From a virus: DNA of 64,000 bases. The position numbers were made by a program, and so were the translations under genes. Shown here one piece after another: positions 10,200-50,281 of the stretch. The stretch lies in IMG/VR virus record IMGVR_UViG_3300010370_000027; one strand, given 5' to 3'. The notes under the pieces were generated by a model that did no database searches, was not told the origin of the DNA, and saw only the letters and a list, made by a program, of their open reading frames with translations. The first letter of the stretch is position 1, and each line of letters begins with the position of its first letter.

Positions 10200-10239
10200 A
10201 AGAGTAATTATACTCAACTTGAGTGGAGGTGACAAAAAT

Positions 10240-10619
10240 TGGTGGAGGTGGGGGGAATCGAACCCGCCGTCCGCCACACGTCTTCAAACGCCATCGTCCA
10301 CAAGCTTGGAATCCATTTATCGACAGGATCCTCGTCTAGATGGTTTCACGCTTCTTTTTTCTCGGGCCGTTGAACCATCACCTCACCCCAGCCCAGGCAC
10401 CACCCTCCTAGACGATCCACCCCTTACAATGGGGGTAACTACATTGTTCGGGACATTCTGTTTCTAGGTCGTCCCTGCCCATTACTCATGCCGCGAGGGC
10501 GAGAGCAGCGTAGCCGTTGTCGTTGGCAACTGAACGTCACTTGGGTTTTGGACCGGACCCTCGTGCACCGGTGCTTGCTGGTGTTCGCTTCTGTGCGCCG
10601 TCGAAACCTTTACACCCCC
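10240..10619 (-). ncRNA. ssrA: tmRNA (one-piece, ~380 nt); tag peptide ANDNGYAALALAA* at 10527..10486
   Basis: 5' GGGGGTGTAAAGGTTTCGAC pairs with 3' CACCTCC-ACCA, including the G3.U alanine identity pair; T-loop TTCGATT; encoded CCA; internal ORF GCC AAC GAC AAC...GCG GCA TGA ending in LAA. Confidence 0.95.
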
Positions 10620-11884: not shown

Positions 11885-12187
11885 TTACTTCTTAGACGAA
11901 GTCGCGGCTGCAAGAACCTTCTTGAGGGCTGAAACAGCCTCTTGCTGAGAGATGCCCTTTTGAGATGCAATCTTCACAACATCTTGAATGAAAGAGGCAA
12001 GTGAATCAGTCGTAGTTATCTGATCCATCGTGGAGACTAAAGCCTTGTTTTGAACAAGCTTGCCAGTAGCCTTCTCAGCAGCTGTGTTTCCCTTGATGTC
12101 TTTCCCGACATTTGCCGAGTCCTCCTCGGCAAGCGCAGAAAGTTCTTCTCTTACTAATTTGCGGAGGGTAGACTCAGTTATCTTCAT
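11885..12187 (-). CDS. Hypothetical protein with MKITESTLRKLVREEL leader (candidate internal head protein)
   Basis: N-terminal motif shared with several head-module proteins. Confidence 0.6.
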   Translation of the reverse strand: MKITESTLRKLVREELSALAEEDSANVGKDIKGNTAAEKATGKLVQNKALVSTMDQITTTDSLASFIQDVVKIASQKGISQQEAVSALKKVLAAATSSKK

Positions 12188-12236
12188 GAGCCTTAATTAT
12201 ATGATACACATGAAATTAAAATTCTAGGATAGAGGC

Positions 12237-12704
12237 ATGAACATATTTGTCCTCTCAGAAGATCCAGAAGAGGCTGCACGGATGCAGTGCGATAAGCACG
12301 TGGTGAAGATGATCCTCGAGTCAGGTCAAATGCTGTGCGCAGCTCACGATCCAGGCTCAGCTCCCTGGAAGCGCACTCACTACAACCATCCGTGCACGGT
12401 TTGGACTCGTGCATCCACCGAGAACTACAAATGGCTGGCTGCACACGGTCTCACGCTCTGCGATGAATACACGAAGAGGTACGGAAAGGTCCACAAGGCT
12501 GAAGAGGTATTGGTGTGGTGTGCGGAGAATATTCCGAAGAATGTTCCTATCGGTAACCTCACGCCATTTGCAGTCGCAATTAAAGACACCAAATATCACC
12601 TAGGAGACGTTGTATCTTCCTACAGAGCCTATTACCTCGGTGAAAAAAGCAGATTTGCAAAATGGAGATATTGCGATCCTCCCGAGTGGTGGATTTCAGG
12701 GTGA
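12237..12704 (+). CDS. Pyrimidine-dimer DNA glycosylase / endonuclease V-like protein
   Basis: MNIFVL...CDKHVVKMILESGQML...THYNHPCTVW...YRAYY...W motif set typical of this phage/bacterial family. Confidence 0.75.
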   Translation: MNIFVLSEDPEEAARMQCDKHVVKMILESGQMLCAAHDPGSAPWKRTHYNHPCTVWTRASTENYKWLAAHGLTLCDEYTKRYGKVHKAEEVLVWCAENIPKNVPIGNLTPFAVAIKDTKYHLGDVVSSYRAYYLGEKSRFAKWRYCDPPEWWISG

Positions 12705-12734
12705 GACTATAAGTTCATGATCATACTTATGATC

Positions 12735-13397
12735 ATGAATGATGCTAAACGATGGCGGACGCTAATCAAGCGCCTCGCGTATCTCAGGGCGGAAGCGTCT
12801 GAGGCGGTTGAGTCATTCGAAGAATCTGTTAGTGAGATAGAGTCAAGAATAGAAGAAAAAGAAAGGTCAGTCGTCATTGATCCAGACGACATCGTAGAAG
12901 GAAGCAAGATACCAGTCAACGAAACCTCCAAGCACATGACAAAATTCACGGGCAAGAGTGAAGAGAAGTCGTCTGGTGCAACAGAGACGAAGCAGGAATC
13001 AAAGATTGAGACTCCATCGATGGACGACAGCGGTGATGAAGTGAAGCACCACTACAAGCGCCTCTGGCGGGTCGTGGCAAAGCTTACACATCCTGACGCT
13101 GTAGGAAACAACGACGAGCTAATCACACTTTACAAAGCAGCCGCATCGGCGTACGAAAAGGACAGAAGAGACGAGCTCTTAGACGTGGCGTCTGAGGTGA
13201 ACGCACAGTTAGAGAAGCCTCACCCAAAGATGTTTGAGGACCTCGACAAGAGGTGCAATCATTACGAGGCGATGTTAAGAAAGATAAGGGGTTCTGTGGC
13301 GTGGCAATGGAAGAACGCTCAAGAAGGAACGAAACAAGAGATTATCGATCTGATTAAGTCAAAGAGGGAAGAAAAGGTAAAGCAAACCACTGAATAA
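12735..13397 (+). CDS. J-domain-containing (DnaJ-like) co-chaperone
   Basis: KRLWRVVAKLTHPD...LYKAAASAYE (helix II-HPD-helix III); start at MNDAK chosen from the upstream ATACTTA motif (track start 12717). Confidence 0.65.
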   Translation: MNDAKRWRTLIKRLAYLRAEASEAVESFEESVSEIESRIEEKERSVVIDPDDIVEGSKIPVNETSKHMTKFTGKSEEKSSGATETKQESKIETPSMDDSGDEVKHHYKRLWRVVAKLTHPDAVGNNDELITLYKAAASAYEKDRRDELLDVASEVNAQLEKPHPKMFEDLDKRCNHYEAMLRKIRGSVAWQWKNAQEGTKQEIIDLIKSKREEKVKQTTE

Positions 13398-13427
13398 TTT
13401 TGTCTGTCGTGGAGATAATTAATCTTC

Positions 13428-14165
13428 ATGAATGAGAAGCTCTTAAAGAGATACGTTAGATCCATACTTCTAGAGATGTCTTACGAAGACGTCAAAACTT
13501 CTAAGGACCCGCTCGATTGGGTGGAAGCAGCTTTTCAAGATCCAGAAGAATGGAACACAAAAGATCCCTTCAGGGCAATGATAAGAGCTGCAAAAAGATT
13601 TGGTCTTGAAGAATTCGGAATGGGATCAAGCAGGTTCGTCTTCAACCTGAAAAACGGAAAAGTTCTAAAAATAGCAAGGAACAACAAAGGACTCGAGCAA
13701 AATAAGCTCGAAGCAGTAGCAGGTCGAGACCCACACGTTCACTCTATTTTGGCTTCTGTTTATGATACTTCACCAGAATATGCGTGGCTCGTGGCTGAAT
13801 TCGTAAATCCTCTCGAGGACGGAGAATATAAGGCTGCAGAACGGGTGTGCGGAGTTGTATGGTCAGAAGTAAGACGCGTCCTCGGCTTGTCGAATAAATC
13901 TGAGATTGAATCGACAGTATCGCAGATAACAAAGAAGCTTGAGCCAGAAGAATCTCGAAACAGCAAGACAAAAGGTCAAACAGGATCAGACTGTCCAACA
14001 GGCAAAGAATTTCTCGAGAGTCTCGGAAGCTTCTTGGATCGATATAGTGGAATGCTCACAGGAGACATCGAGAAGTTGTCGTCATGGGGAGTGAATGACA
14101 AAGGATGTCTCGTGTTACTAGATTACGGAATCACAAGAAAGAAGTTCGAAGAGCTTTATCGATAG
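13428..14165 (+). CDS. Protein kinase-like protein
   Basis: GMGSSRFVF (Gly loop), VLKIA (Lys), QNKLE (helix C Glu), WLVAEFV, GDIEKLSSWG (catalytic loop), LLDYG (DFG-like). Confidence 0.75.
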   Translation: MNEKLLKRYVRSILLEMSYEDVKTSKDPLDWVEAAFQDPEEWNTKDPFRAMIRAAKRFGLEEFGMGSSRFVFNLKNGKVLKIARNNKGLEQNKLEAVAGRDPHVHSILASVYDTSPEYAWLVAEFVNPLEDGEYKAAERVCGVVWSEVRRVLGLSNKSEIESTVSQITKKLEPEESRNSKTKGQTGSDCPTGKEFLESLGSFLDRYSGMLTGDIEKLSSWGVNDKGCLVLLDYGITRKKFEELYR

Positions 14166-14227
14166 AATTATCCGAGTGTCAGGACCGTCGAATTAGATCG
14201 AATATTCTTCTACAGAACAAAAACAAA

Positions 14228-14260
14228 AAGGAGGCCACCGAAAGGTGGCCTCCTTCTTTT
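14228..14260. terminator. Bidirectional Rho-independent terminator between the kinase and major capsid genes
   Basis: AAGGAGGCCACC-GAAA-GGTGGCCTCCTT 12-bp stem, A-rich on the left and T-rich on the right. Confidence 0.9.
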
Positions 14261-14276
14261 CTCCTATGAGACGTTA

Positions 14277-16130
14277 TCAGATAACGTTCATGTCGAGGAC
14301 GGTGACTGTTCCGTAGAAGTCCGAGCGAACGGTCTTCTTACCGTAGCGGGTCATGACGCCCTTGCGAGGTGTGAAGTCCTCAGGAGCGAAGATCGTCGGT
14401 GTGACGATGAGTGGGACGTATGGAGCGTAGACGTAGCCTGTCTCGAGGTAGCTGCCGCCCTTGTAGCCGACGAGGATCTTGTTACGTGAGAAGTAAGGAT
14501 CCTTATAGACCGTGAAGCGGTTCGAGAGGGTACCGACTGCCTCTGCGCCGATGGTGAAGGGCGATCCGACCTGGCCCTCGCCGTCGAGCGAGAACTTAGG
14601 CTTGTAGAGGACCGAGGCCTCGAGGATTGTGCAAACGTCTGGTCCTGTGACGAGGAAGTTTGCCGATCCGCGGAGCGTCTTGCGGTGGATGGTGTTCGCG
14701 ACGTCGATGATCGTCTCGATGAGTGTCTCGTACCACTCGCGAACTGTACCTGTGAACTGTGGTCCGATCTGGTACACGTCTGTGAGTGCCTGGCGAGCGC
14801 CTGTCACCTTGTTAACGAAGCGACCTGGCGAGCGGCTCCAGTAGTAGTTGGCGCCGTTGGCCTGCGACACGAGGTCGTTGAGGATCTCGCGGTCGATTTC
14901 GAGGGCGATCTGCTCCGAGAGGATCGATGTGAGCTCGACTTCAGCGTCCATCGAGTGATAGGCGTTGAGGTCCTGTGCGAGTTCCGGCGACCACTTGGCG
15001 CGGAGCTTACGGGTCTCAGCTGTGATGCTGATGGCCTCGATCTTGATGTCGATCTCAGGGATCACTGGGGCTGGTGTTGCACCGAAGTCCGACTCGAACG
15101 AGGGGACTGTGACTGTGGCGCCGCTGTTTCCGTCGACCGAGAGGGCTGACGAGAGCGAGTACGAAACTGTACCAGCTGCAGCACCGGCTGAAAGAGCTGC
15201 ACCGTTGGCGCCCTTGACGACCGTGAGGACGTGTGTGCCGTTGAGTGCGTCTGGGGTGAAGACCGAACCGCTCCAGTTACCGCGCTTGTTGAGGCGACGG
15301 AGGTTGAGGACTCCATTGCCACCCTGATATGTCTCTCCCCAAGCTGTCGCATTTGTGACACCAGCGAAGAGAGCGAGCTGGTTGACAGCAAGCTTGTCCA
15401 TGTTCGAAAGACCGCTAATATCGACGATTGCGAAGGCCATGTCGAGGTCGTTGTTTGCGAGAGCGTTCTCGACCTGACCGTCGAACTCGGCGAAGCGAGC
15501 GTTCGATCCCGAGAACATTGCAGCAGAAGAAACTTCGAGGTTAGCTGCCCAGGTGTCGCCGTTGACTCCGCCCCAAGCACCGACCGTGAAGGTGAGGCCT
15601 GTTGCAGAACCTGTCACGCGGCTGTAGCCTGTGTTGACGAGGTCGTACATACCACCGGTGGCGAGCGATCCGCTCTGGACGCCTTTGCCGGTCGGGTTGT
15701 TGTAGAGCGACTGTCCGCGTGTGTATGTCGAACCTGTCTCACCAGCTGGTGTTCCGACGTTCGAACCGTAGGTGTAGTCGAGATAGAAGATGAGTCCCGA
15801 TGGGAGGCTCATTGGCTGGATCGAGACGAGCTCGTTGGCAACGAGACCGCCGAAGACTCTGCGAACGATCGGGAAGGCGATGTTCGAGAAGCCCTGGATC
15901 TGACCCGAACCGGCGAGGTTTCCACCGCCGCTCGAGAGAGCGTTGCTCTCCTTGAGGACCTGAGCTGCCTGGTTCTCGAGGAGCTGGGCCATAACCTCGC
16001 GGCGTGTGCCGTCGAGGCCACGGAGGAGTCCTGTGCGGCTCCACTTCTCTGTAAGACGTGCGCGCTCGGCTCCGACGTGCTTCTCGCGGATGCCCTGAGC
16101 GAGTTGTTCAAGACTAAAGTGCTTTGACAT
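14277..16130 (-). CDS. gp23: Major capsid protein, T4 gp23-like
   Basis: LLENQ, FPIVRRVF, VSIQPMSLPSGLIFYL, TRKLRAKWSPELAQDLNAYH, EIDREIL, YAPYVPL, FTPRKGVMTRYG. Confidence 0.95.
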   Translation of the reverse strand: MSKHFSLEQLAQGIREKHVGAERARLTEKWSRTGLLRGLDGTRREVMAQLLENQAAQVLKESNALSSGGGNLAGSGQIQGFSNIAFPIVRRVFGGLVANELVSIQPMSLPSGLIFYLDYTYGSNVGTPAGETGSTYTRGQSLYNNPTGKGVQSGSLATGGMYDLVNTGYSRVTGSATGLTFTVGAWGGVNGDTWAANLEVSSAAMFSGSNARFAEFDGQVENALANNDLDMAFAIVDISGLSNMDKLAVNQLALFAGVTNATAWGETYQGGNGVLNLRRLNKRGNWSGSVFTPDALNGTHVLTVVKGANGAALSAGAAAGTVSYSLSSALSVDGNSGATVTVPSFESDFGATPAPVIPEIDIKIEAISITAETRKLRAKWSPELAQDLNAYHSMDAEVELTSILSEQIALEIDREILNDLVSQANGANYYWSRSPGRFVNKVTGARQALTDVYQIGPQFTGTVREWYETLIETIIDVANTIHRKTLRGSANFLVTGPDVCTILEASVLYKPKFSLDGEGQVGSPFTIGAEAVGTLSNRFTVYKDPYFSRNKILVGYKGGSYLETGYVYAPYVPLIVTPTIFAPEDFTPRKGVMTRYGKKTVRSDFYGTVTVLDMNVI

Positions 16131-16174
16131 GATTAAATTCTCCTAAAATAGTTGGTTGGTTTTAATTGAATCAA

Positions 16175-18163
16175 TTACTTGATTATTCCCGCCAAACGTG
16201 CCCAACGGTCAGACTCAAATCCCTCGTTGAGAGTATTGGTTGCCGATGCAGGACGTGCTGGGCGAGATGCTGAACCTATGACGCCACGATCGGTCGACTC
16301 CGTGATCTTCGTTGTCGATGCCGAGAGTGTCTTCACGAGGCTCTCATACACGAGCTTCACTTCACGCTCAGACTTAGCCTCGTCGAGTCTCTCTATGATT
16401 TCAGCCTTCTGGCGTTTTGTGAGTGACTCATTCTGGAGGAGCTTGTTTGTGAAGAGCAACTTCGCGTTGAACAGATTCGTTTCTGCCAACTTATTGCGGA
16501 GATCAGTCTCTGCCGCGGACGACTTCGGAGCGCCATTGAGGGCCTCTCCCTTGCGGGTTGCCTCTGCGAGCATACCCTTGAGCTTGTTGCAGCGAGCAAC
16601 AGACTCGTTAAACTTGGTTGCGAAGAAGTTGTAGGCCTCCTGCATCTTCTTAGCCTGCTTCTTAGCCTGCTGCTTCTCCTGCATCTTCTTAGCCTGGGAA
16701 GCCTTCTTCTGGGCTTCCATCTGCTTCTTCTTGGCCTGCGTAGCCTTCTTCTTGGCTTCCGTCTGAAGATTTGCCTCTGCAGCGAGCTTTCGCTTGATCG
16801 ATTCTACAGGCATATCAGGCTGAACATTTGGCTGCATAACCTTGGGATCATGTCCTGGGTGGGAGCGACGCTTCTCAGATTGATCCATGCCACCGTAGGC
16901 TTGATCCATCTCTGACTCATCCATCTCAGCTTCGTCTTGCTCGTCCATTTCTTCTGCCTCTGACCAAGCCTGATCAAGTTCGTCGAGTTCTTCCTGAGCG
17001 TCTTGCTCGTCCATCTTCTTGTCGTCAGAATCCTCTTCGGACTCTGTGGTTAGCTCGACGTCAGTGAAGGGATCACCAAGATCGTCGTCTTCAAAATCAT
17101 CAGAAACTTCGCCTGGACCGTGGCCCTTTTCAGCATTCTTTGGCATATCAGTCGCCTCGCGGATCGACTTCATGCGTGCAATCTCACGACGGAGCATTCC
17201 CTCGTCTATTTCAACGATTGTGTCGTCGCTGAGAGTCTTCGACTCGAGAGCAAACGATTCTTCCTGTGTCTCTTCTTCATCACCGCCGAGATCAAGGTCG
17301 GCATCTTCTGACTCATCAGAACTTTCGTCTCCGAGGTCAAGCTCTTCGCCGCCCTCGTCGCCACCTGCTTCTTCAGCTTCGGCGCCGGACTCCTCACCCT
17401 CTTCGTCACCTGTGATAAGATCAACGCCGAGAGATTCGAGATCCAGATCATCGGGCATGCCCGTGAGCTTTAATGTTACGTCTGCTTCTGAAAGTGTTTT
17501 GTGGTTTTTCTTCATTTTCTGCTCCGTGAGCTGCTTGAGGGTTGAATAATAATTTTCAAGAATCGACTCATAAGAGCTCTTCTTGGGGCAATCCTGCAGG
17601 TTATTCTGCAAGTACGAATACGTATCCTCTACTTCAGCAACAATTGAAGAAAGTACGTCTTCAAAACCTTTAGATTCTCTAACAAGCTTTCCAGTCTTGC
17701 TGACTAAATCAATTTTCTTGTTGAGACCTTCCATCTTGACGTCGAAATTCGAATCACCAGATGAAGCCATTAAAACTCCGAGAGAATTAGCAGATTCTAG
17801 ACTAAGCTCATACTCATTTCCGCAGCCATCGTCAGCCTTGAGTGCATCTAAGTCGAGAGTAACCTTTCCTTCCTCATCAGGAAGAGACATTGCTACCGCA
17901 GAAGAAGCTGCGTCTCCTACCTGAGGAGCTGCGGTGACAGGTGCAGTCTCAAAAGAATCAGGAGAAACAAGCGTGTTTTCGTCCTTTAAAATGTCTTCTG
18001 GGTCTGCTTCCATCTCTCCGAGCTCGCCGAGCAGTTGATTCTCGATGAGATCTCTTATTCGAGGTGTAACTGCCTCAAGAAGTGCTCTTTTTGCGTTATC
18101 TTCAGCTACTTCCTTCAGCTTCTTCACGTCTGCTAAGGCTTCTTCGTACAATTGCTTAGTCAT
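16175..18163 (-). CDS. Prohead core / scaffolding protein (T4 gp22 position)
   Basis: Immediately upstream of the MCP; very acidic and coiled-coil; many (L/I/V)-x-E sites; ends RWARLAGIIK. Confidence 0.7.
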   Translation of the reverse strand: MTKQLYEEALADVKKLKEVAEDNAKRALLEAVTPRIRDLIENQLLGELGEMEADPEDILKDENTLVSPDSFETAPVTAAPQVGDAASSAVAMSLPDEEGKVTLDLDALKADDGCGNEYELSLESANSLGVLMASSGDSNFDVKMEGLNKKIDLVSKTGKLVRESKGFEDVLSSIVAEVEDTYSYLQNNLQDCPKKSSYESILENYYSTLKQLTEQKMKKNHKTLSEADVTLKLTGMPDDLDLESLGVDLITGDEEGEESGAEAEEAGGDEGGEELDLGDESSDESEDADLDLGGDEEETQEESFALESKTLSDDTIVEIDEGMLRREIARMKSIREATDMPKNAEKGHGPGEVSDDFEDDDLGDPFTDVELTTESEEDSDDKKMDEQDAQEELDELDQAWSEAEEMDEQDEAEMDESEMDQAYGGMDQSEKRRSHPGHDPKVMQPNVQPDMPVESIKRKLAAEANLQTEAKKKATQAKKKQMEAQKKASQAKKMQEKQQAKKQAKKMQEAYNFFATKFNESVARCNKLKGMLAEATRKGEALNGAPKSSAAETDLRNKLAETNLFNAKLLFTNKLLQNESLTKRQKAEIIERLDEAKSEREVKLVYESLVKTLSASTTKITESTDRGVIGSASRPARPASATNTLNEGFESDRWARLAGIIK

Positions 18164-18210
18164 GTTTACTCTTTCTTGCGTCTAACTGTTAACCATCTCT
18201 AAGTATAATA

Positions 18211-18774
18211 TCAAATCGAGGATTTTCCAGGCGTAAGTGAATCTCCTAACACAGTATTGACACTTTCTTCACTTGGAGAACGTGTACCAGATCCCTCTGC
18301 TCCTGGTGTGTAGTTTGGTTTGATCTCACTTGGGGAAATATCAGGATTTGAATTTTTATCTATGCCGTCCACTCTAACAGTTCCAGGAGCTCCTGGGCCG
18401 GGGGATGTGACATCAGGTACGTATGGATTGGCAGGATCTCCAGGATTTCTCCAGGACACATCTGCGAGATTTGGCGCCTTTCCGTAAGTGAGATCAACAC
18501 CCGATGGGAACATGCCCAAATCACCTGTCTGCATGCCAGACTCAGGAAGAAGTCCGTTCTGGTTATCTCTCGCTCTTTTTACGACAGATTCTGCGGCTTT
18601 TCCGTTCTCAGTCTGTGGATTAGAAGACTCTCCATAAAAACTAGCAATTCCTGATCTAAGGGCATTTGCCTTTTGATTGAAGAGTTTCCACAAAAGAGAA
18701 TAGCGCGAACCAGCACTCGTAGTAGTGGCTGCGGGAACATAAGTTGTATATCTACCTTTACCTGGTGCGCTCAT
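18211..18774 (-). CDS. Pro/Gly-rich hypothetical protein in head module
   Basis: 187 aa with AGGAG RBS. Confidence 0.6.
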   Translation of the reverse strand: MSAPGKGRYTTYVPAATTTSAGSRYSLLWKLFNQKANALRSGIASFYGESSNPQTENGKAAESVVKRARDNQNGLLPESGMQTGDLGMFPSGVDLTYGKAPNLADVSWRNPGDPANPYVPDVTSPGPGAPGTVRVDGIDKNSNPDISPSEIKPNYTPGAEGSGTRSPSEESVNTVLGDSLTPGKSSI

Positions 18775-18795
18775 TGGACTGCTCCTGTTGACAAA

Positions 18796-19041
18796 TTAAA
18801 TCTTCTTCGAAAGACGCTTCTTCGTCTCTTCGATCTTCGCGAGACGACGACGAAGACGAGTCTCCTCGATCTTAAGCGCCTTCATAAAATCAATGTGCTT
18901 CGCTGCAACCTTTTCGCTTCCGACCTCGTCAGCGTCGACCTCTTCTGTGTCTTTTGCTCGTTCTTCTGTCGACTCCATGTCGCCGAACTTGGCAACTTCC
19001 TCTTCAATGATTCTACGAAGTAACTGGCTTGTAAGTTTCAT
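18796..19041 (-). CDS. Small head-module protein with MKLTSQLLRRIIEEE leader
   Basis: Start at MKLT (GAGAGGA RBS); acidic middle, basic C-terminal helix. Confidence 0.65.
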   Translation of the reverse strand: MKLTSQLLRRIIEEEVAKFGDMESTEERAKDTEEVDADEVGSEKVAAKHIDFMKALKIEETRLRRRLAKIEETKKRLSKKI

Positions 19042-19091
19042 ATCAAAAAATCCTCTCACTTAAACGGTAAGTATATTCAAGAAGAAAAAAT

Positions 19092-19526
19092 TTACTTTTT
19101 TAGAGGTGAATCCATGAAAGCAAGTGATGCCCACTTGGATGTTACATCATCTCCAAAAAGGTCTTCCGGGTTTGCCCTGGCGACGACCTGTTCAACTAAT
19201 CCCCCACCTGCTGCTGCAGGAACGGGTGATTTTCCGTCGTTCTGCAAAAATGCAGGAAGTGTAGAAGCTGCAGTATCTGCAAAGATGTCTTCCATCACTT
19301 TATTTCCTCCTGCCTCTCTCCTTATTGTCTCTTTTAAACTAGGAGAAAACATCTTTTGAGGAGGTGGTTGCCTTCTAAGATTGTCTGAAAGAGGCGCGCT
19401 TGGCTGACGATTCACAACACTTTTTGGAGAGTCAGCATTTAAACCCAGGCCTTCACCCAATATTTCAACAAGGCATTCTTTGACAATAGATTTTAATTCA
19501 GATTTTGTGATCTTCATCCCGTTCAA
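19092..19526 (-). CDS. Head-module protein with MKITKSELKSIVKE leader
   Basis: ORF directly downstream of the protease; shared leader motif. Confidence 0.65.
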   Translation of the reverse strand: MNGMKITKSELKSIVKECLVEILGEGLGLNADSPKSVVNRQPSAPLSDNLRRQPPPQKMFSPSLKETIRREAGGNKVMEDIFADTAASTLPAFLQNDGKSPVPAAAGGGLVEQVVARANPEDLFGDDVTSKWASLAFMDSPLKK

Positions 19527-19529
19527 CCT

Positions 19530-20150
19530 TTACTTCTTTAATGTCAAAATATCGTTAACAATTCTATCAATTCTATCCGACTTATTGAATATGTTTCTTA
19601 ATTCATTCGAATTAATGGTCCTACCCTCAGGAAGCATAAATGCTCCGGGCGTAGAAGGCTCTGAAACGTAGTCCCAACAGATTAGCTGGAAGTCATCTTG
19701 AACGATGTGATAGTCACCTTGCTTCTTGACTGATCCTACACCTCGCGAGGAGATTCCGAGCTTGACTCCGCTCTCGACGAGGGACTGAAGTATCTTGCCA
19801 GAAGGTGTATCCAATAGCTCCACAGTACCATAAACCACCCCTCGATCCAGGTATGCTTCCTTAATGACGTGAGACACGTTCTTGAGGTTGACCACGGATG
19901 AGTCCGGGTGGTCCAACTCACCGAGAGCGCGGTTCTCAGCGATGAACTTCTGATAGTTACGGACTTCACGCTCGAGAACAGCCATCGGGTAGATGCGACC
20001 GTTCTGGTTGAGTGTGTCGGCCTTCTGAAGGATTCCCTTCATCATGACCTTACCGTTGTTCTTCTCCCGCGACTCCTTGATCATTTCAGGAGTGTAGTCG
20101 AAGACTTCGTATGAATTGAGTAGCTTGAGGTCTTGTGCCATGGTGTTCAC
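19530..20150 (-). CDS. gp21: Prohead core protein protease, T4 gp21-like
   Basis: GILQKADTLNQNGRIYP, ALGELDHP, VSH, TPSGKIL, LGISSRGVGS, WDYVSEPSTPGAF. Confidence 0.93.
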   Translation of the reverse strand: MNTMAQDLKLLNSYEVFDYTPEMIKESREKNNGKVMMKGILQKADTLNQNGRIYPMAVLEREVRNYQKFIAENRALGELDHPDSSVVNLKNVSHVIKEAYLDRGVVYGTVELLDTPSGKILQSLVESGVKLGISSRGVGSVKKQGDYHIVQDDFQLICWDYVSEPSTPGAFMLPEGRTINSNELRNIFNKSDRIDRIVNDILTLKK

Positions 20151-21001
20151 TCCTTAGATGCCAGTTCGTCGTTGAGTTTTGCGTAGAGCATGAATCGGGT
20201 AACTGTCGAGTCGTCGATTGAATCAAGATTCTCTTCGAGGAGAACGTTCTTTGTCTCAGAGAGTTTGTTCTTGAGGTAATCGTTCTGCACTTCTGACTCG
20301 TAGCCATCGATGAGTCCAACAAGATCATTCTTTATTTCTTGCAGCTTCATCTTTATTGAAGTTTGATCGTCTGACGCTGTCGAATACGCGTAAGCTTTGA
20401 TGAGAGACTTCTGATGCTCGTTAAGAACACCGTTGTACTTCTCATTGAGCTTCTTGGTCATGACTTTCATGAGAAGTCTTGCAGATCCTGAAGTATCTTC
20501 TGAAATTGAAGTATCTGGTTTCTGTACCTTTTCTGAAACAAGATGCTTCATGATGTGGTCTTCATACTGAGCAACCCTGTAGAGGTCCTTGTCAGACATA
20601 GTCCACTCGTTAATGAGGGTCTGAATTGTGGCAAAGAGTCTGTATTCGCTGATGTGCTGATCATAAAAGTCTTCATCATTCAAAATGTGATTGATGTTTC
20701 GAATGAGAATTGACTTCTCCCTATCAAGTTTTTGAATATCAAAAGAACCTACTGCGTTTTTTGCTTCACTCAAAATTGAAGCCGCTGTGTGCTCAGAGGC
20801 AACTGTAGTCTTTACGAGAGCGTTCATTAGACGAAATTCTTTGTAAATTTCTGTGCCTTGTCTAAAGTGCTTCTTTAAGATCTTGAGGGCGGCGGAAGAC
20901 TTTTTCTTGTTATCTTCTATGATTGACTTAGAAATAGTCCTCACGAGAAACTCGTATATGAGGAGGCTGTTTCTTCTCTTGTTATGCTTATTTGCGGCCA
21001 T
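20147..21001 (-). CDS. Hypothetical protein between portal and protease
   Basis: 284 aa helical ORF, KHNKRRN N-terminus, coupled to neighbours. Confidence 0.65.
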   Translation of the reverse strand: MAANKHNKRRNSLLIYEFLVRTISKSIIEDNKKKSSAALKILKKHFRQGTEIYKEFRLMNALVKTTVASEHTAASILSEAKNAVGSFDIQKLDREKSILIRNINHILNDEDFYDQHISEYRLFATIQTLINEWTMSDKDLYRVAQYEDHIMKHLVSEKVQKPDTSISEDTSGSARLLMKVMTKKLNEKYNGVLNEHQKSLIKAYAYSTASDDQTSIKMKLQEIKNDLVGLIDGYESEVQNDYLKNKLSETKNVLLEENLDSIDDSTVTRFMLYAKLNDELASKE

Positions 21002-21002
21002 T

Positions 21003-23012
21003 TCATTTGCTCCCGTCGTCGTCTATTATGAGGACTTCTCTATGTTCGCGTGCGTCTGCCTCATCAAAATTATCTGATTCGCTGAGGACTTGTGGAGTTT
21101 GTGTAGAATTTTTAGTATTTTTTTGAAACTTTGAAGACAGAGACATGTTTCTCAAAGAAGAAATAACGTCATTTCCAACGGGCGTCTTATGTGATGTCTT
21201 GTTGGCAGATTCTCCAAAGGGATTTCTTACGTAAGAATTCATCCATTCTCTGTCGTAAGGATCAGAGTAATTTTTGTCATTTGCTCTTGTCATTCTATTG
21301 AAGTCAGGAGAATGAGTCTTAGAAGGTCCGTGATGTCTGATCCTAGATCTATTGTAGAGAGCTCGGTCGAGTTGCTTTTGAGCCTTCACAGGTACTTCGA
21401 CATCCTTTAAAGAAAATTTAACTGGGACGTCGTCGTCATCTGGGTCTTCTCCGGCAGTGAGGAGATCAAGATAAGGATTCTTCTGAGAAGCGTCGTCTCC
21501 TGCAAAGAGATCTTCTGCTTCCCCGCCTTCTTCCTCGCCTGCCTCAGGCTCTTCGGTATCTTCAGGCTCCTCTGATGATTCACTGCCAGAATCAGGCTCA
21601 GCACTTTCTATGGCCTGATCTACAAGTTTCTCTCTAAGGCGTTGATCATCAATTTCCTTGCACTGATCGTCATTAAGTCCCCAAATCTCCTTGCGGATAA
21701 ATTCCTTAGACATCTGACCTTCAGGTGCAGTACCTGCAATCTCGAACTTAGATCTCCACAATTCCAACTTCTGCTGCTGAGCAACAGTCGATGGATTGGA
21801 CATACGCAAAGCAAAATTCTGCAGATCTTCAGAATCAAAGCCATGTGCATAAAGATGAATTATTGCCAATTTATTAAGCTCAGCAACAATTGTCTTTTGA
21901 ATAACGTTGATAGTCCTGGAAAATCTGATGTCTTCCTGAGCAAGTGTTGCTTTGCTTGAAAGAGATTCGTCATAACCGAGATATGCACGTGGAATCTTAA
22001 GGGCTGCAAAGAGCTTCTTCTGAATGTAGGCCACATCTTCAACAGCCGCAGTGTTCTGACCGCCTGCAAGTGTATCGATTCTCGTACCGGAATCTCCGCC
22101 GCGGACAGGTATAAAATAGTCCTCATCGACAGAAAGTGGGTTGTAACGAAGATCGACTCGACCTGTTGAACGATCAATGACTTGTGAGGAACGAAGGTTC
22201 TTCCTTTGCTCCTCGACGTACATAGGAACGTTCTCAGGCGGTATGTTGGCCACGTCGATGTAGAAGACGCGCCTTTCTGGTGCGCGAACAACTCGGTAGA
22301 CCAGCATGGCGTCCTCGATGAGGATCAATTGACGCCAAATCCTGCGGGCGGGTTCGATCACTGAGGAGCCATAGGGAAGAAACATGTCGTTTCCCAAGAG
22401 CCTGAAGTGTGTAACCTCCCAGTTCTCCAGCGTTCTATTGCCGAGAGTGACCCATCGGTAACGAACTGCCATGGGATCGCTAGGATCGTAGTTCTCCTCG
22501 CGCTCGATCTCGTTCACCGGGATGGGGAAAGCACTGATGACACCATGCTCCGGTGACACGTCGTTATAGAGGAACATGTCACCGTACTTGACAAGATTTC
22601 TTACCCAGGACCTGAGGTTGAACTCCACATTGAGTGTGTTGTAGAAGAGGTCCTCAAGAATCTCTCTGATCTTCTCGTTATCCGAGTAGATGTGGAGGAC
22701 TCGTCCCTTCTCGTCCTGTGCACATGTCTCGTCAGCATAGATGTCCAGGGCCGCCGCCAATTCAGGAGTGTATTCCATCTCAGCGAAATCTTGATAACGC
22801 ATGAGACGCTCTGAAAGATTGTAGGCATTAGCCGTTATAGTGGCATATGTTGGCGCCATCGACTTCTGAAATAACAAAGCTCCACTGCTCTTTGTTTTAT
22901 CTGCCACAGCAACAGTAGTATCGAGCGCCCTGATCTTTCTCTTGACAACAGGACCACTTCGAAATAGCTTTGTTAATTTCTGAAAGATGTTTTGGTCTTC
23001 TTTTTTCGCCAT
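21003..23012 (-). CDS. gp20: Portal protein, T4 gp20-like
   Basis: LIEDAMLVYRVVRAPERRVFYIDV, EDYFIPVRG, IDTLAGGQN, DVAYIQKKLFAALKIP; long acidic C-terminal extension. Confidence 0.93.
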   Translation of the reverse strand: MAKKEDQNIFQKLTKLFRSGPVVKRKIRALDTTVAVADKTKSSGALLFQKSMAPTYATITANAYNLSERLMRYQDFAEMEYTPELAAALDIYADETCAQDEKGRVLHIYSDNEKIREILEDLFYNTLNVEFNLRSWVRNLVKYGDMFLYNDVSPEHGVISAFPIPVNEIEREENYDPSDPMAVRYRWVTLGNRTLENWEVTHFRLLGNDMFLPYGSSVIEPARRIWRQLILIEDAMLVYRVVRAPERRVFYIDVANIPPENVPMYVEEQRKNLRSSQVIDRSTGRVDLRYNPLSVDEDYFIPVRGGDSGTRIDTLAGGQNTAAVEDVAYIQKKLFAALKIPRAYLGYDESLSSKATLAQEDIRFSRTINVIQKTIVAELNKLAIIHLYAHGFDSEDLQNFALRMSNPSTVAQQQKLELWRSKFEIAGTAPEGQMSKEFIRKEIWGLNDDQCKEIDDQRLREKLVDQAIESAEPDSGSESSEEPEDTEEPEAGEEEGGEAEDLFAGDDASQKNPYLDLLTAGEDPDDDDVPVKFSLKDVEVPVKAQKQLDRALYNRSRIRHHGPSKTHSPDFNRMTRANDKNYSDPYDREWMNSYVRNPFGESANKTSHKTPVGNDVISSLRNMSLSSKFQKNTKNSTQTPQVLSESDNFDEADAREHREVLIIDDDGSK

Positions 23013-23070
23013 TTTATTCTCGCTGATCCATTAAGGGATCAGCCCTAAGTTTTTTTAAAATACAACAAAA

Positions 23071-23361
23071 TTACTTCTGCGCTTTAAGAGTTACTTTTTG
23101 CGCTGAAGGTTTTGTTGCATCGACATATTGCATCGGAGAGGCAACAATTCTATTGAGAATCTGCTCTAGGCCATCAAGATTTCCTCCAAGCTCGGCCTTA
23201 GCTTTTTCGCTAGCGCTCTCCTTAAAAGACTCGATAGCTCCTAAAAGTTTGGTAGCAGCTCCCATAATCTTAGAGGCAGAGTCATGGTCTGCGCCTTCAT
23301 TAAGAGACTCTATCTCTTCGCGAATTATTCTCTTAAGAGTATTTAGATTAATCTTTGACAT
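23071..23361 (-). CDS. Small protein with LKRIIREEIESLNE leader
   Basis: 96 aa; AGAGGA RBS; shared leader motif. Confidence 0.65.
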   Translation of the reverse strand: MSKINLNTLKRIIREEIESLNEGADHDSASKIMGAATKLLGAIESFKESASEKAKAELGGNLDGLEQILNRIVASPMQYVDATKPSAQKVTLKAQK

Positions 23362-23459: not shown

Positions 23460-25076
23460 CTATCTAAAAAGCCAAGAAAAGTCTGATACGTCGACGTGCT
23501 TTATGTCCTCGGGCTTTTTCGCTTTGTGTACATTTTCTGGTGTGAATCCCTGTATCTGGGCATTTGGGACAGGCCGCACTTGATTGACTCCGCCGGGCAG
23601 GTCATTCAAATTTCTATTTCCTACTGCTGTCGCTTTTAGCATTGCCATGGCCATTGCCATGCCCTGAGTATCTCCACCGCCCTCGCCTGCAGCGAGCCAA
23701 GTTCCAATAGCTAGACTCATGATAAGGTCGTCGTGGGCATCTTTGGAAGCCTGAGCTTTTGCACCATTCCAGATAAAGGCCTGCAATTGATCAAAAAGAC
23801 GTTGAGAGTAAGTTTTTAGCCTTGAATTTCTTATTGATTCTTCAAGCTTTGTCAGTATCTGAGTCCTAGTCTTGGTCTGTGTCGAGAATCCAGGCACTGA
23901 TTCTGGGTCTGAAGGCTTGTATCCAAACAAATCTCCCCCATTATTGTGATAGTACAAAGCAGGGTATCCTTCATCTCTAAGCTTGACACAAGTAAAGTAT
24001 CCGAACGTGTTTTGTTCTGGGCATATCAAGGCATTGTTGTAACGCCTTCCATAAGTAGAAAGAAGCTCTGCAAGCCTATCGGGAGGTATTTTCCCCATGA
24101 ATTCTGCACACACTTCGCACGATTCGTAGTCTATGACATGAAAAGTTGAATAGTCAGAAGCATCTCCTCTTGCGACATCTGCAGAAATTATATACTTGTG
24201 CCCTTGCTCTGGGTTCTTCCAGATCCAGACTCCATTCTGTGGCCCTTCTTTTAGATTTGGCGGTCTAATAAGACCTCGAAGTTTTTCAAACTCAGAAGGC
24301 TGTAGAAACGTGTCACCGGACGAAACGAAGTCACATAAAAACTCTTGCGCGATCTGACGCTTCGTGAGGTTTCTGGTCTCTTTGTTGAACCAATCTTGGT
24401 CGTGTTCTGGGTGGACGTCCCATGGGAGTCTTATAGGATTGAAGTCATTTGCACCAGTCTCGGCTTCTGTCCACAGCTTGTAGTACTGACCTCCCACGCC
24501 GTTTGGAGTGGACAGGATGATAGCAGAACCACCGGTTGAGAGTGTTGGATAAAGAGACGTCCAAATCTCATCGAAGTCTCTAATGAATGCTGCCTCGTCT
24601 ACGATAAGTAGCGCTAATGCTTCAGAACGACCGGCGTCAGGAGATGTTGGAACAGCAGTTATTGTTGAGCCATTATCAAAACGAATTGACTGCTTTGTAG
24701 GTTCAAACTTAGTCAACAGAAGCCAAGGAGGAAGACCATCAAGCATGGTCTTTACTTTCTTGATGAAGTTAATTGCTGTGTTAAGCTTAGTTGCAATGAC
24801 AAGAATGTTCTTGTCCTTTTTAAAAATTGCATACCAAACAACATAGGCAGCGGAGACCGTAGAAAGTCCCAACTGCCTAGACTTGAGAACAATGTTAAAT
24901 CGATGCTGTTGAAACTGTTTTACACAATCGTTCTGGAAATCATATGTGTCGAAGGGGATAAGACCTCTCAGCTGATGCTGAATCTTGCAGTACTTCTTCA
25001 TAAAGTACGTTGGATCTTTACCGCACTTTAGTATCTCTGCTACTACCGCCTGTCTTGAAGGAGTCGTTGTTGTCAT
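23460..25076 (-). CDS. gp17: Terminase large subunit, T4 gp17-like
   Basis: YDFQ, KSRQLGLST (Walker A), LIVDEAAF (Walker B), LSTPNG, ADVARG...DYS, HDDLIMSLAI nuclease motifs. Confidence 0.95.
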   Translation of the reverse strand: MTTTTPSRQAVVAEILKCGKDPTYFMKKYCKIQHQLRGLIPFDTYDFQNDCVKQFQQHRFNIVLKSRQLGLSTVSAAYVVWYAIFKKDKNILVIATKLNTAINFIKKVKTMLDGLPPWLLLTKFEPTKQSIRFDNGSTITAVPTSPDAGRSEALALLIVDEAAFIRDFDEIWTSLYPTLSTGGSAIILSTPNGVGGQYYKLWTEAETGANDFNPIRLPWDVHPEHDQDWFNKETRNLTKRQIAQEFLCDFVSSGDTFLQPSEFEKLRGLIRPPNLKEGPQNGVWIWKNPEQGHKYIISADVARGDASDYSTFHVIDYESCEVCAEFMGKIPPDRLAELLSTYGRRYNNALICPEQNTFGYFTCVKLRDEGYPALYYHNNGGDLFGYKPSDPESVPGFSTQTKTRTQILTKLEESIRNSRLKTYSQRLFDQLQAFIWNGAKAQASKDAHDDLIMSLAIGTWLAAGEGGGDTQGMAMAMAMLKATAVGNRNLNDLPGGVNQVRPVPNAQIQGFTPENVHKAKKPEDIKHVDVSDFSWLFR

Positions 25077-49684: not shown

Positions 49685-50281
49685 TCAGTCACCAATGATC
49701 TTGTCGACAATACCAAGCTTAACAGCTTGGTCCGGAAGGAGGTAGAAGTCATGTCCAGACTTCATGATCTTTTCGATCTCAGTCTTTGAAGCCTTTGTTT
49801 CACGAACAATTGCATCAACCATCTGGTCCTGCATGCGCTTGTGCTCCTTAGACTCGTTAATGACCTCGAATACGTTACCTCCGACTCCTCCGGAGATGGG
49901 ATGGATCATCACACGAGCATTACGTCCAATCATCCTCTTACCCTTAGCTCCAGTGGCGAGAAGTAGAACTCCTGCACTCATAACTTTGCCAAGAGCAATG
50001 GTATGGACTGGGCACGGGAGAAACTTAATAGTGTCATAGAGAGTAAACATCTCGTCCACTGATCCGCCGTACGTAGAGATAACTAGATGGATAGGCTTAT
50101 GGTTTTGAGATGCTAAATGGAGTAACTGAGCTACCACGAGTGAGATCGATGCCTCATTGACATCTCCGTGGAGAACAACGAGGCGCTGCGAGTCTCCCAT
50201 TGCTATCCCCATCGTAGTAGAGGACTCTTCGCTGTTATTCTTAGAAATTTTTGCTGAATTTGTTACAGATCTTCCCATCAC
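49685..50281 (-). CDS. clpP: ATP-dependent Clp protease proteolytic subunit
   Basis: ISTYGGSV, YDTI, GKVMSAG (Ser), VMIHP (His), HDFYL (Asp), AVKLGIVDKI. Confidence 0.9.
   Translation of the reverse strand: MMGRSVTNSAKISKNNSEESSTTMGIAMGDSQRLVVLHGDVNEASISLVVAQLLHLASQNHKPIHLVISTYGGSVDEMFTLYDTIKFLPCPVHTIALGKVMSAGVLLLATGAKGKRMIGRNARVMIHPISGGVGGNVFEVINESKEHKRMQDQMVDAIVRETKASKTEIEKIMKSGHDFYLLPDQAVKLGIVDKIIGD

Follow-up and report, generated by a model that had tools for sequence, protein, structure and literature searches.

The IMG/VR virus record IMGVR_UViG_3300010370_000027, a stretch of 64,000 nucleotides that we refer to as the window, encodes four small proteins that begin with the same 16-residue peptide, here called the leader. 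An earlier note on this DNA had proposed that five otherwise unrelated open reading frames (ORFs) start with such a peptide, that it is an address tag for the phage head and that one of the tagged proteins is a kinase. In this work we show that the leader is a strictly N-terminal, protein-level module carried by numerous small proteins, unrelated to one another, in a large clade of uncultured T4-like phages, and we argue that it is probably a head-targeting propeptide resembling the capsid-targeting sequence (CTS) of T4. The leader genes of the window are given below, with E-values from a leader profile hidden Markov model (HMM) of 18 columns, based on 43 leaders from the window and from relatives. 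Lengths are in amino acids (aa).

11885..12187, minus strand: 100-aa ORFan, a stand-alone gene with a canonical leader at residues 1-16 (E 4.7e-8, model position 1 on the ATG)
18796..19041, minus strand: 81-aa leader protein, the second conserved head-module family (E 1.6e-7)
19092..19517, minus strand: 141-aa leader protein from a family conserved in the head module, its gene immediately following that of the protease (E 1.3e-7)
23071..23361, minus strand: 96-aa leader protein between the terminase and portal genes (E 8e-6)

The consensus of the leader is M-K-[IL]-T-x3-L-[KR]-x-[IL]-[IV]-x-E-[EC]-[LVI]. When the 64 kb are translated in all six frames, a strict form of its core, L-[RK]-x-[ILVM]-[IV]-x-E, is found just four times, each time at residues 8-10 of an ORF with an ATG start (12187, 19517, 19041 and 23361). 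The HMM likewise has four matches in the window, each at an ATG and with E-values from 5e-8 to 8e-6, while the next best match has an E-value of 0.57. The ATGs at 19517 and 19041 are the true starts, as opposed to an upstream TTG and GTG, and in the 96-aa protein the leader is displaced by one residue (M-S-K...). All the letters quoted in the earlier note, five N-termini and two scaffold segments, are found in the sequence as given. Nevertheless, the claim of a common leader holds for four of the five ORFs only, as the N-terminus of the kinase fails both the strict motif and the HMM, being absent from the 30 best HMM matches.

Beyond the leader the four proteins are indeed unrelated, with no mutual BLASTP match at 1e-4 between the parts that follow residue 22 (the cargo parts). 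The likeness of the leaders lies at the protein level. Identical residues are often encoded by different codons and the nucleotide identity is 38-54%, which rules out a DNA repeat or a recombination cassette.

The head module

Three of the leader genes belong to families that are conserved in the head module, which lies on the minus strand and is that of a distant T4-like phage. Its genes run in the order terminase large subunit, 96-aa ORF, portal, a conserved 284-aa ORF, S77 protease and ORFs of 141, 81 and 187 aa, followed by a 662-aa scaffold-like protein and a gp23-type capsid protein.

23460..25076, minus strand: terminase large subunit (Pfam Terminase_6N, E 1.7e-15)
21003..23012, minus strand: T4 gp20-type portal protein (Pfam Portal_T4, E 4.3e-76)
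19530..20150, minus strand: T4 gp21-type prohead serine protease, Peptidase_S77 (Pfam PF03420, E 1.2e-26; phrog_207, E 5e-51)
16175..18163, minus strand: acidic, scaffold-like protein of 662 aa, some segments of which loosely resemble the leader; its gene lies between those of the protease and the capsid protein
14277..16130, minus strand: gp23-like major capsid protein (Pfam Gp23, E 2.4e-77)

The gp21-like protease on which the proposed tag depends is thus present in the phage. It is 31% identical to T4 gp21 (E 9e-23), and the G-E-L-[DN]-H-P and S-S-R-G blocks, which hold the catalytic His and Ser of the T4 enzyme, align between the two proteins. The C-terminal 48 residues of the protease (19530-19680, minus strand) are conserved in about 35 relatives and contain the leader-like segments E-L-[RQK]-x-[IV]-F-N-K and R-I-D-R-I-[LIV]-N-D-I-L; the protease may dock in the core through this tail.

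The scaffold-like protein has no Pfam or PHROG family, and its N-terminal 42 residues resemble the counterpart in the Flavobacterium phage immuto (E 4e-6). The internal segments that were said to resemble the leader do exist in its sequence, yet they are absent from the significant HMM matches.

In a collection of 50,697 phage records the best matches to the capsid protein are an uncultured 484-kb phage (LR756508.1, 39% identity), immuto and the Microcystis phage Mel-JY01. Within IMG/VR there are hundreds of relatives on contigs of up to 298 kb. The 141-aa, 81-aa and 96-aa families have 42, 39 and 15 members, respectively, in the related loci, and the most conserved block of the 141-aa family is formed by residues 11-20 (0.89). 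The 100-aa protein has no Pfam family and no homologue in 80 related loci. For the 96-aa protein there is no Pfam or PHROG family and no match in cultured phages, and an ESM Atlas look-up gave hypothetical viral clusters only.

The leader in related phages

In six-frame translations of the 80 related loci the strict motif occurs 153 times, and 74 of these occurrences have a Met exactly seven residues upstream. The roughly 42 occurrences without a nearby Met are about the number expected by chance. Using a core profile, i.e. the leader profile without the M-K-x-T start, we obtained 115 matches of at least nine bits among 1,537 genes of relatives. As many as 107 of these lie in the first 25 residues, which make up 9.9% of all residues (binomial p ~1e-96). 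The other eight look internal, mostly owing to miscalled starts, and no match lies at a C-terminus. The enrichment at N-termini on which the earlier note had staked its proposal is therefore pronounced and, together with the four matches at ATGs in the window, it rules out a chance origin of the leader.

The cargo parts fall into at least 39 unrelated clusters. Three head-module families (141, 81 and 96 aa) are conserved, while at least 30 others are lineage-specific. One of the leader proteins combines two recognisable domains:

L052:10663-11763, plus strand: 366-aa protein with a canonical leader followed by DnaJ (Pfam, E 1.7e-19) and WGR (Pfam, E 3.4e-16) domains

A good example of the scale on which the leader is used is the complete relative G001 (297,894 bp), in which about 17 genes begin with a leader at their ATG. 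They all share the orientation of the head genes (p 0.004) and often occur in adjacent pairs. Ten further leader proteins of this genome gave no significant match to Pfam or PHROGs. The 484-kb phage has at least 13 leader genes, including tandem arrays of four to seven. G001 also holds two internal copies of the leader. In its 308-aa protein (L090:12339-13265, minus strand; G001 192339-193265) a leader at the start is accompanied by a full second copy at residues 86-96, and this protein may consist of two tagged units in one chain.

The canonical leader was not found in T4, immuto or Mel-JY01. In immuto, a different N-terminal peptide, N-F-x-L-[RK]-x-F-L-x-E-N-K-L-T, is common to two ORFs (333 and 99 aa; L096:2736-4036, plus strand) that lie upstream of the terminase. 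It is similar in shape, and may be a tag of that lineage's own.

The predicted cleavage site

The leader ends in two hydrophobic residues, any residue and Glu, [IL]-[IV]-x-E, and Glu14 is invariant in an alignment of 43 leader sequences. Among 72 distinct leaders, which were chosen by the motif with a fixed spacing from Met1, position 12 is only ever Ile or Val and position 11 is Ile, Leu, Val or, once, Met. T4 gp21 cleaves after L/I-x-Glu (PMC9026906, PMC3012670), and the 10-residue N-terminal stretch of T4 gp24, which is annotated as gp21-cleaved, also ends in Glu.

The capsid protein of the window offers a comparison within the same genome. Its N-terminal region aligns with the propeptide of T4 gp23, and by analogy its maturation cut is predicted after Glu61 (V-L-K-E followed by S, at about 15948-15959), in a motif, Q-[VL]-[LI]-[KR]-E-[SATV], that is kept in 80 of 80 relatives. 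At the level of sequence, the end of the leader and this predicted maturation site share one shape, [ILV]-x-E. The gp21-type ending that had been claimed for the tag is thus borne out, and we infer that leader proteins would be cut after the leader Glu.

The 141-aa protein has three stacked [LIV]-x-E sites, two of them directly behind the leader end. The two extra sites recall the redundant cut sites that are carried by the propeptides of giant phages (PMC9026906). Stacked sites also suit a different reading, in which leader proteins do enter the prohead, but all of them are transient parts of the core or scaffold that are degraded and expelled, with no delivery to the host. In its favour, the 141-aa and 81-aa families are acidic and conserved, and their place is that of gp67 and gp68 in T4. 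What it fits poorly are the variable, lineage-specific ORFans and the DnaJ+WGR cargo, which do not look like scaffold components but like the polymorphic internal proteins of T-even phages (PMC3012670). We consider it highly improbable as an account of all leader proteins, although a purely transient core role is possible for some of them.

The proposal that leader proteins are delivered cargo has to be narrowed in the same way. The two best-conserved families are probably prohead-core components, lying where gp67 and gp68 do in T4. A direct comparison of the 141-aa protein with T4 gp68 and of the 81-aa protein with gp67 found no similarity. The 100-aa protein and other variable ORFans remain candidates for internal proteins that are delivered with the DNA.

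A second class of terminal peptide

The fifth ORF of the earlier note carries a peptide of another kind, which we call class 2.

13428..14165, plus strand: 245-aa protein with a protein-kinase-like fold (AlphaFold2 and Foldseek) and a class-2 terminal peptide at residues 1-16

This protein has no Pfam match at E 1 and no sequence match in the PDB. An AlphaFold2 model based on 28 homologues has a mean predicted local distance difference test score (pLDDT) of 80.4. Nearly all of the top 50 Foldseek hits in the PDB are kinase-like folds (OSR1, CDK2, APH(2''), Rio2 and MTR kinase), with probabilities of 0.97-1.0, although the E-values (~1e-3) and template-modelling scores (~0.35) are weak. Residues K81, E95, D213 and D232 are invariant in the 28 homologues. 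By inspection, without structural superposition, they are candidates for the conserved Lys, the helix-C Glu, the catalytic Asp and the metal-binding Asp of kinases. In the catalytic loop, G-D-I-x-K-L-S-S-W-G, a Ser replaces the Asn five residues after the Asp. Kinase-like is therefore a fair label.

The class-2 peptide, L-L-[KR]-x-Y-[IV]-[KR]-x-[IV]-L-x-E, is conserved in 26 of the 28 aligned sequences and recurs at the N-termini of unrelated proteins. Its position is more flexible than that of the canonical leader. In homologues of 380-420 aa it is found at the extreme C-terminus, directly after a Glu, and some of these have an N-terminal copy as well. A class-2 profile has 16 matches at E <1, eleven N-terminal, four C-terminal and one internal, the N-terminal share being partly by construction as the profile contains the initial Met. 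Its bearers include an NT5C nucleotidase and a nucleotidyltransferase. Long homologues (L074:19841-21103, minus strand; L018:13880-15052, minus strand; P0037-P0051) end in E-[ST]-[LI]-[LIV]-R-x-x-[IV]-[KR], mirroring the N-terminal peptide of the window protein. In fusions of an AAA_33 P-loop kinase with the kinase-like domain (P0024-P0026, 387-388 aa) the peptide lies between the domains, at residues ~155-170, like a polyprotein joint.

This distribution fits a portable docking peptide. The two classes look related, because the best match in the window of a profile built from the C-terminal tails is the canonical leader of the 100-aa protein (E 0.03). As for the earlier proposal of a kinase among the leader's cargo, there is a kinase-like fold behind a related peptide, but the peptide is not the canonical leader. 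Because class-2 peptides are also found at C-termini and on metabolic enzymes, we regard the kinase as a possible cargo. That it uses the same head route as the canonical leader proteins seems to us somewhat less than an even chance, and class 2 could be directed to a target other than the prohead.

Both classes might instead be read as a permanent structural or oligomerisation helix, neither removed nor an address, of a fast-evolving family of small paralogous head or core proteins. Most bearers are small and without domains, the tandem pairs and arrays suggest duplication, and one AAA_33 fusion keeps its class-2 peptide internal, beside the kinase-like domain. Paralogy is nevertheless difficult to reconcile with cargo parts that form 39 clusters without detectable similarity and that differ in fold, DnaJ+WGR behind the canonical leader, the kinase-like fold and NT5C in class 2. 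An invariant Glu at the junction, at a constant distance from Met1, is in keeping with a processing site, and in the AlphaFold2 model the N-terminal helix of the kinase-like protein has a low pLDDT (58-66), unlike a packed element of the core. We judge this reading to be quite unlikely in general, while such a role is possible for some leader proteins.

A probable head-targeting propeptide

We favour a cleaved head-targeting propeptide as the probable role of the canonical leader, because it is N-terminal only, because its end has the shape of the predicted capsid site and because an S77 protease is encoded alongside. It would be a tag like the CTS of T4, but of greater length and in far wider use. 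Late in infection, the leader would bind the scaffold core of the growing prohead and bring its protein inside, where the protease would cut after the invariant Glu14 and free the mature part.

The T4 system is the closest precedent. The CTS of internal proteins IPI, IPII and IPIII and the propeptides of Alt and gp24 are, like the leader, short N-terminal peptides on unrelated proteins with a hydrophobic-x-Glu end, and in T4, as in the window, a gp21-type S77 protease, a gp20-type portal and a gp23-type capsid protein belong to one module. The first ten residues of IPIII suffice for packaging, with residues 4 and 7 serving in targeting and residues 8 and 10 in processing (PMC9026906; PMC3012670). 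Internal-protein genes of T4 are variable and often in tandem, as are the leader cargo genes, and the arrays of the 484-kb phage recall the T-even internal-protein locus. The differences are that the CTS has 10 residues, against 14-16 for the leader, and a different sequence; that T4 uses its tag on a handful of genes, against about 17 per 298-kb genome; and that the leader clade has a second peptide class, also at C-termini. T4 Alt is itself processed at both ends (PMC9026906), which is reminiscent of class-2 peptides at either terminus.

More distant parallels exist. In the giant phages phiKZ (gp175), 201phi2-1 and SPN3US (gp245), where propeptides are removed from head and ejection proteins, a diverged gp21 homologue cuts many head proteins after Glu, about 19 in 201phi2-1 (PMC9026906). 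Their propeptides are long, with no single shared short tag and with the cut motif S/A-x-E, and these phages are not close to the leader clade. A search of the literature on this motif, or on expanded CTS systems in uncultured phages, found only the T4 and giant-phage papers. Encapsulin cargo-loading peptides are short and portable, sit at either end of unrelated enzymes and direct these into an HK97-fold shell. Encapsulins differ from the leader system in having no protease step, no scaffold and no DNA.

Several observations weigh against a CTS-like propeptide. The leader profile has no match in the T4 genome at E 0.01 and no sequence homology to the CTS, so the resemblance is limited to the M-K start and the hydrophobic-x-Glu end. 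The preference of the window's protease for Glu before the cut is assumed by analogy with T4. Several mature parts are acidic (isoelectric points of 5.1-5.3), whereas the internal proteins of T4 are basic. The amphipathic character that had been ascribed to the leader is only weakly upheld, since the hydrophobic moments of 0.26-0.46 do not go beyond those of shuffled sequences (median 0.24, 95th percentile 0.49). Neither a megablast search with the module nor tblastn searches with two leader proteins found a cultured relative in the 50,697 phage records. Finally, ClpP is encoded by all five leader-bearing relatives tested.

The last point matters for a third alternative, in which the peptides would act at protein termini as degrons, or as helices that dock onto a hub for proteolysis or chaperoning. 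The hub would consist of the phage ClpP and a host unfoldase, and the peptides would time the removal of their proteins without loading them into heads. The window encodes suitable components:

49685..50281, minus strand: ClpP (Pfam, 6e-41)
10240..10619, minus strand: tmRNA with a tag peptide ending in A-A-L-A-L-A-A (ARAGORN)

A tag ending in L-A-A fits such a hub. ClpX reads both N- and C-terminal motifs, and class-2 peptides are found at either terminus and on metabolic enzymes such as the NT5C nucleotidase and the nucleotidyltransferase. The degron reading applies above all to class 2. The co-occurrence with ClpP, in five of five leader-bearing records against one of three leader-less ones, comes from a sample confounded by relatedness and is uninformative here. 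ClpP is absent from T4 and immuto but present in Mel-JY01, which has no such leader. A degron also leaves unexplained why the two most conserved leader families sit between the protease and scaffold genes and why the leader end copies the predicted capsid maturation site, and none of the 115 core-profile matches of the canonical class is C-terminal. Taken together, we find a role in timed proteolysis very unlikely.

Returning to the head-targeting propeptide, a bolder version would combine the two classes into a terminal address code. A strictly N-terminal class would serve small internal proteins, and an either-end class would load enzymes (kinase-like, deoxynucleotidase and nucleotidyltransferase), so that the phage injects an enzyme kit that includes a protein kinase. 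This extension is speculative and on balance unlikely.

The principle of a head-loading tag has been known from T4 since the 1990s. The leader system would be a variant of T4's CTS and not a new principle, and the surprise lies in its scale and variety, not in its kind. Should the tag function as it does in T4, proteins that travel in the capsid would be encoded by about 5% of the genes of a widespread group of uncultured phages of 100-480 kb. Injected phage proteins are often anti-defence factors, and the leader would allow those likely to be injected to be listed from sequence for phages that cannot be grown. It would also provide a second, longer packaging tag for engineering, and a peptide that loads enzymes from either terminus would add enzymatic cargo to the few internal proteins known from T4.

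Upstream motif and neighbouring genes

Three genes of the window are preceded by the same short box, 5-6 nucleotides (nt) before the ATG and with no Shine-Dalgarno sequence between box and ATG.

12194..12200, minus strand: ATAATTA box, 6 nt before the ATG of the 100-aa leader gene
13415..13421, plus strand: ATAATTA box, 6 nt before the kinase-like gene
10205..10211, minus strand: ATAATTA box, 5 nt before a third gene

An association of the leader with the ATA-n-TTA motif, for which the earlier note had proposed a test, is also seen in G001, where ATA[AT]TTA is enriched within 25 nt upstream of leader genes (5 of 17, against 14 of 366 other genes; Fisher p 7e-4). This suggests shared regulation. 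If ATAATTA is the -10 box of a promoter, it would give nearly leaderless mRNAs.

Two plus-strand genes lie between the 100-aa ORFan and the kinase-like gene. The first (12237-12704) encodes a DenV-like pyrimidine-dimer glycosylase (Pfam, 2.5e-8). It is followed by a gene for a 226-aa protein (12717-13397) that, without a Pfam match, contains an H-P-D motif and looks J-domain-like.

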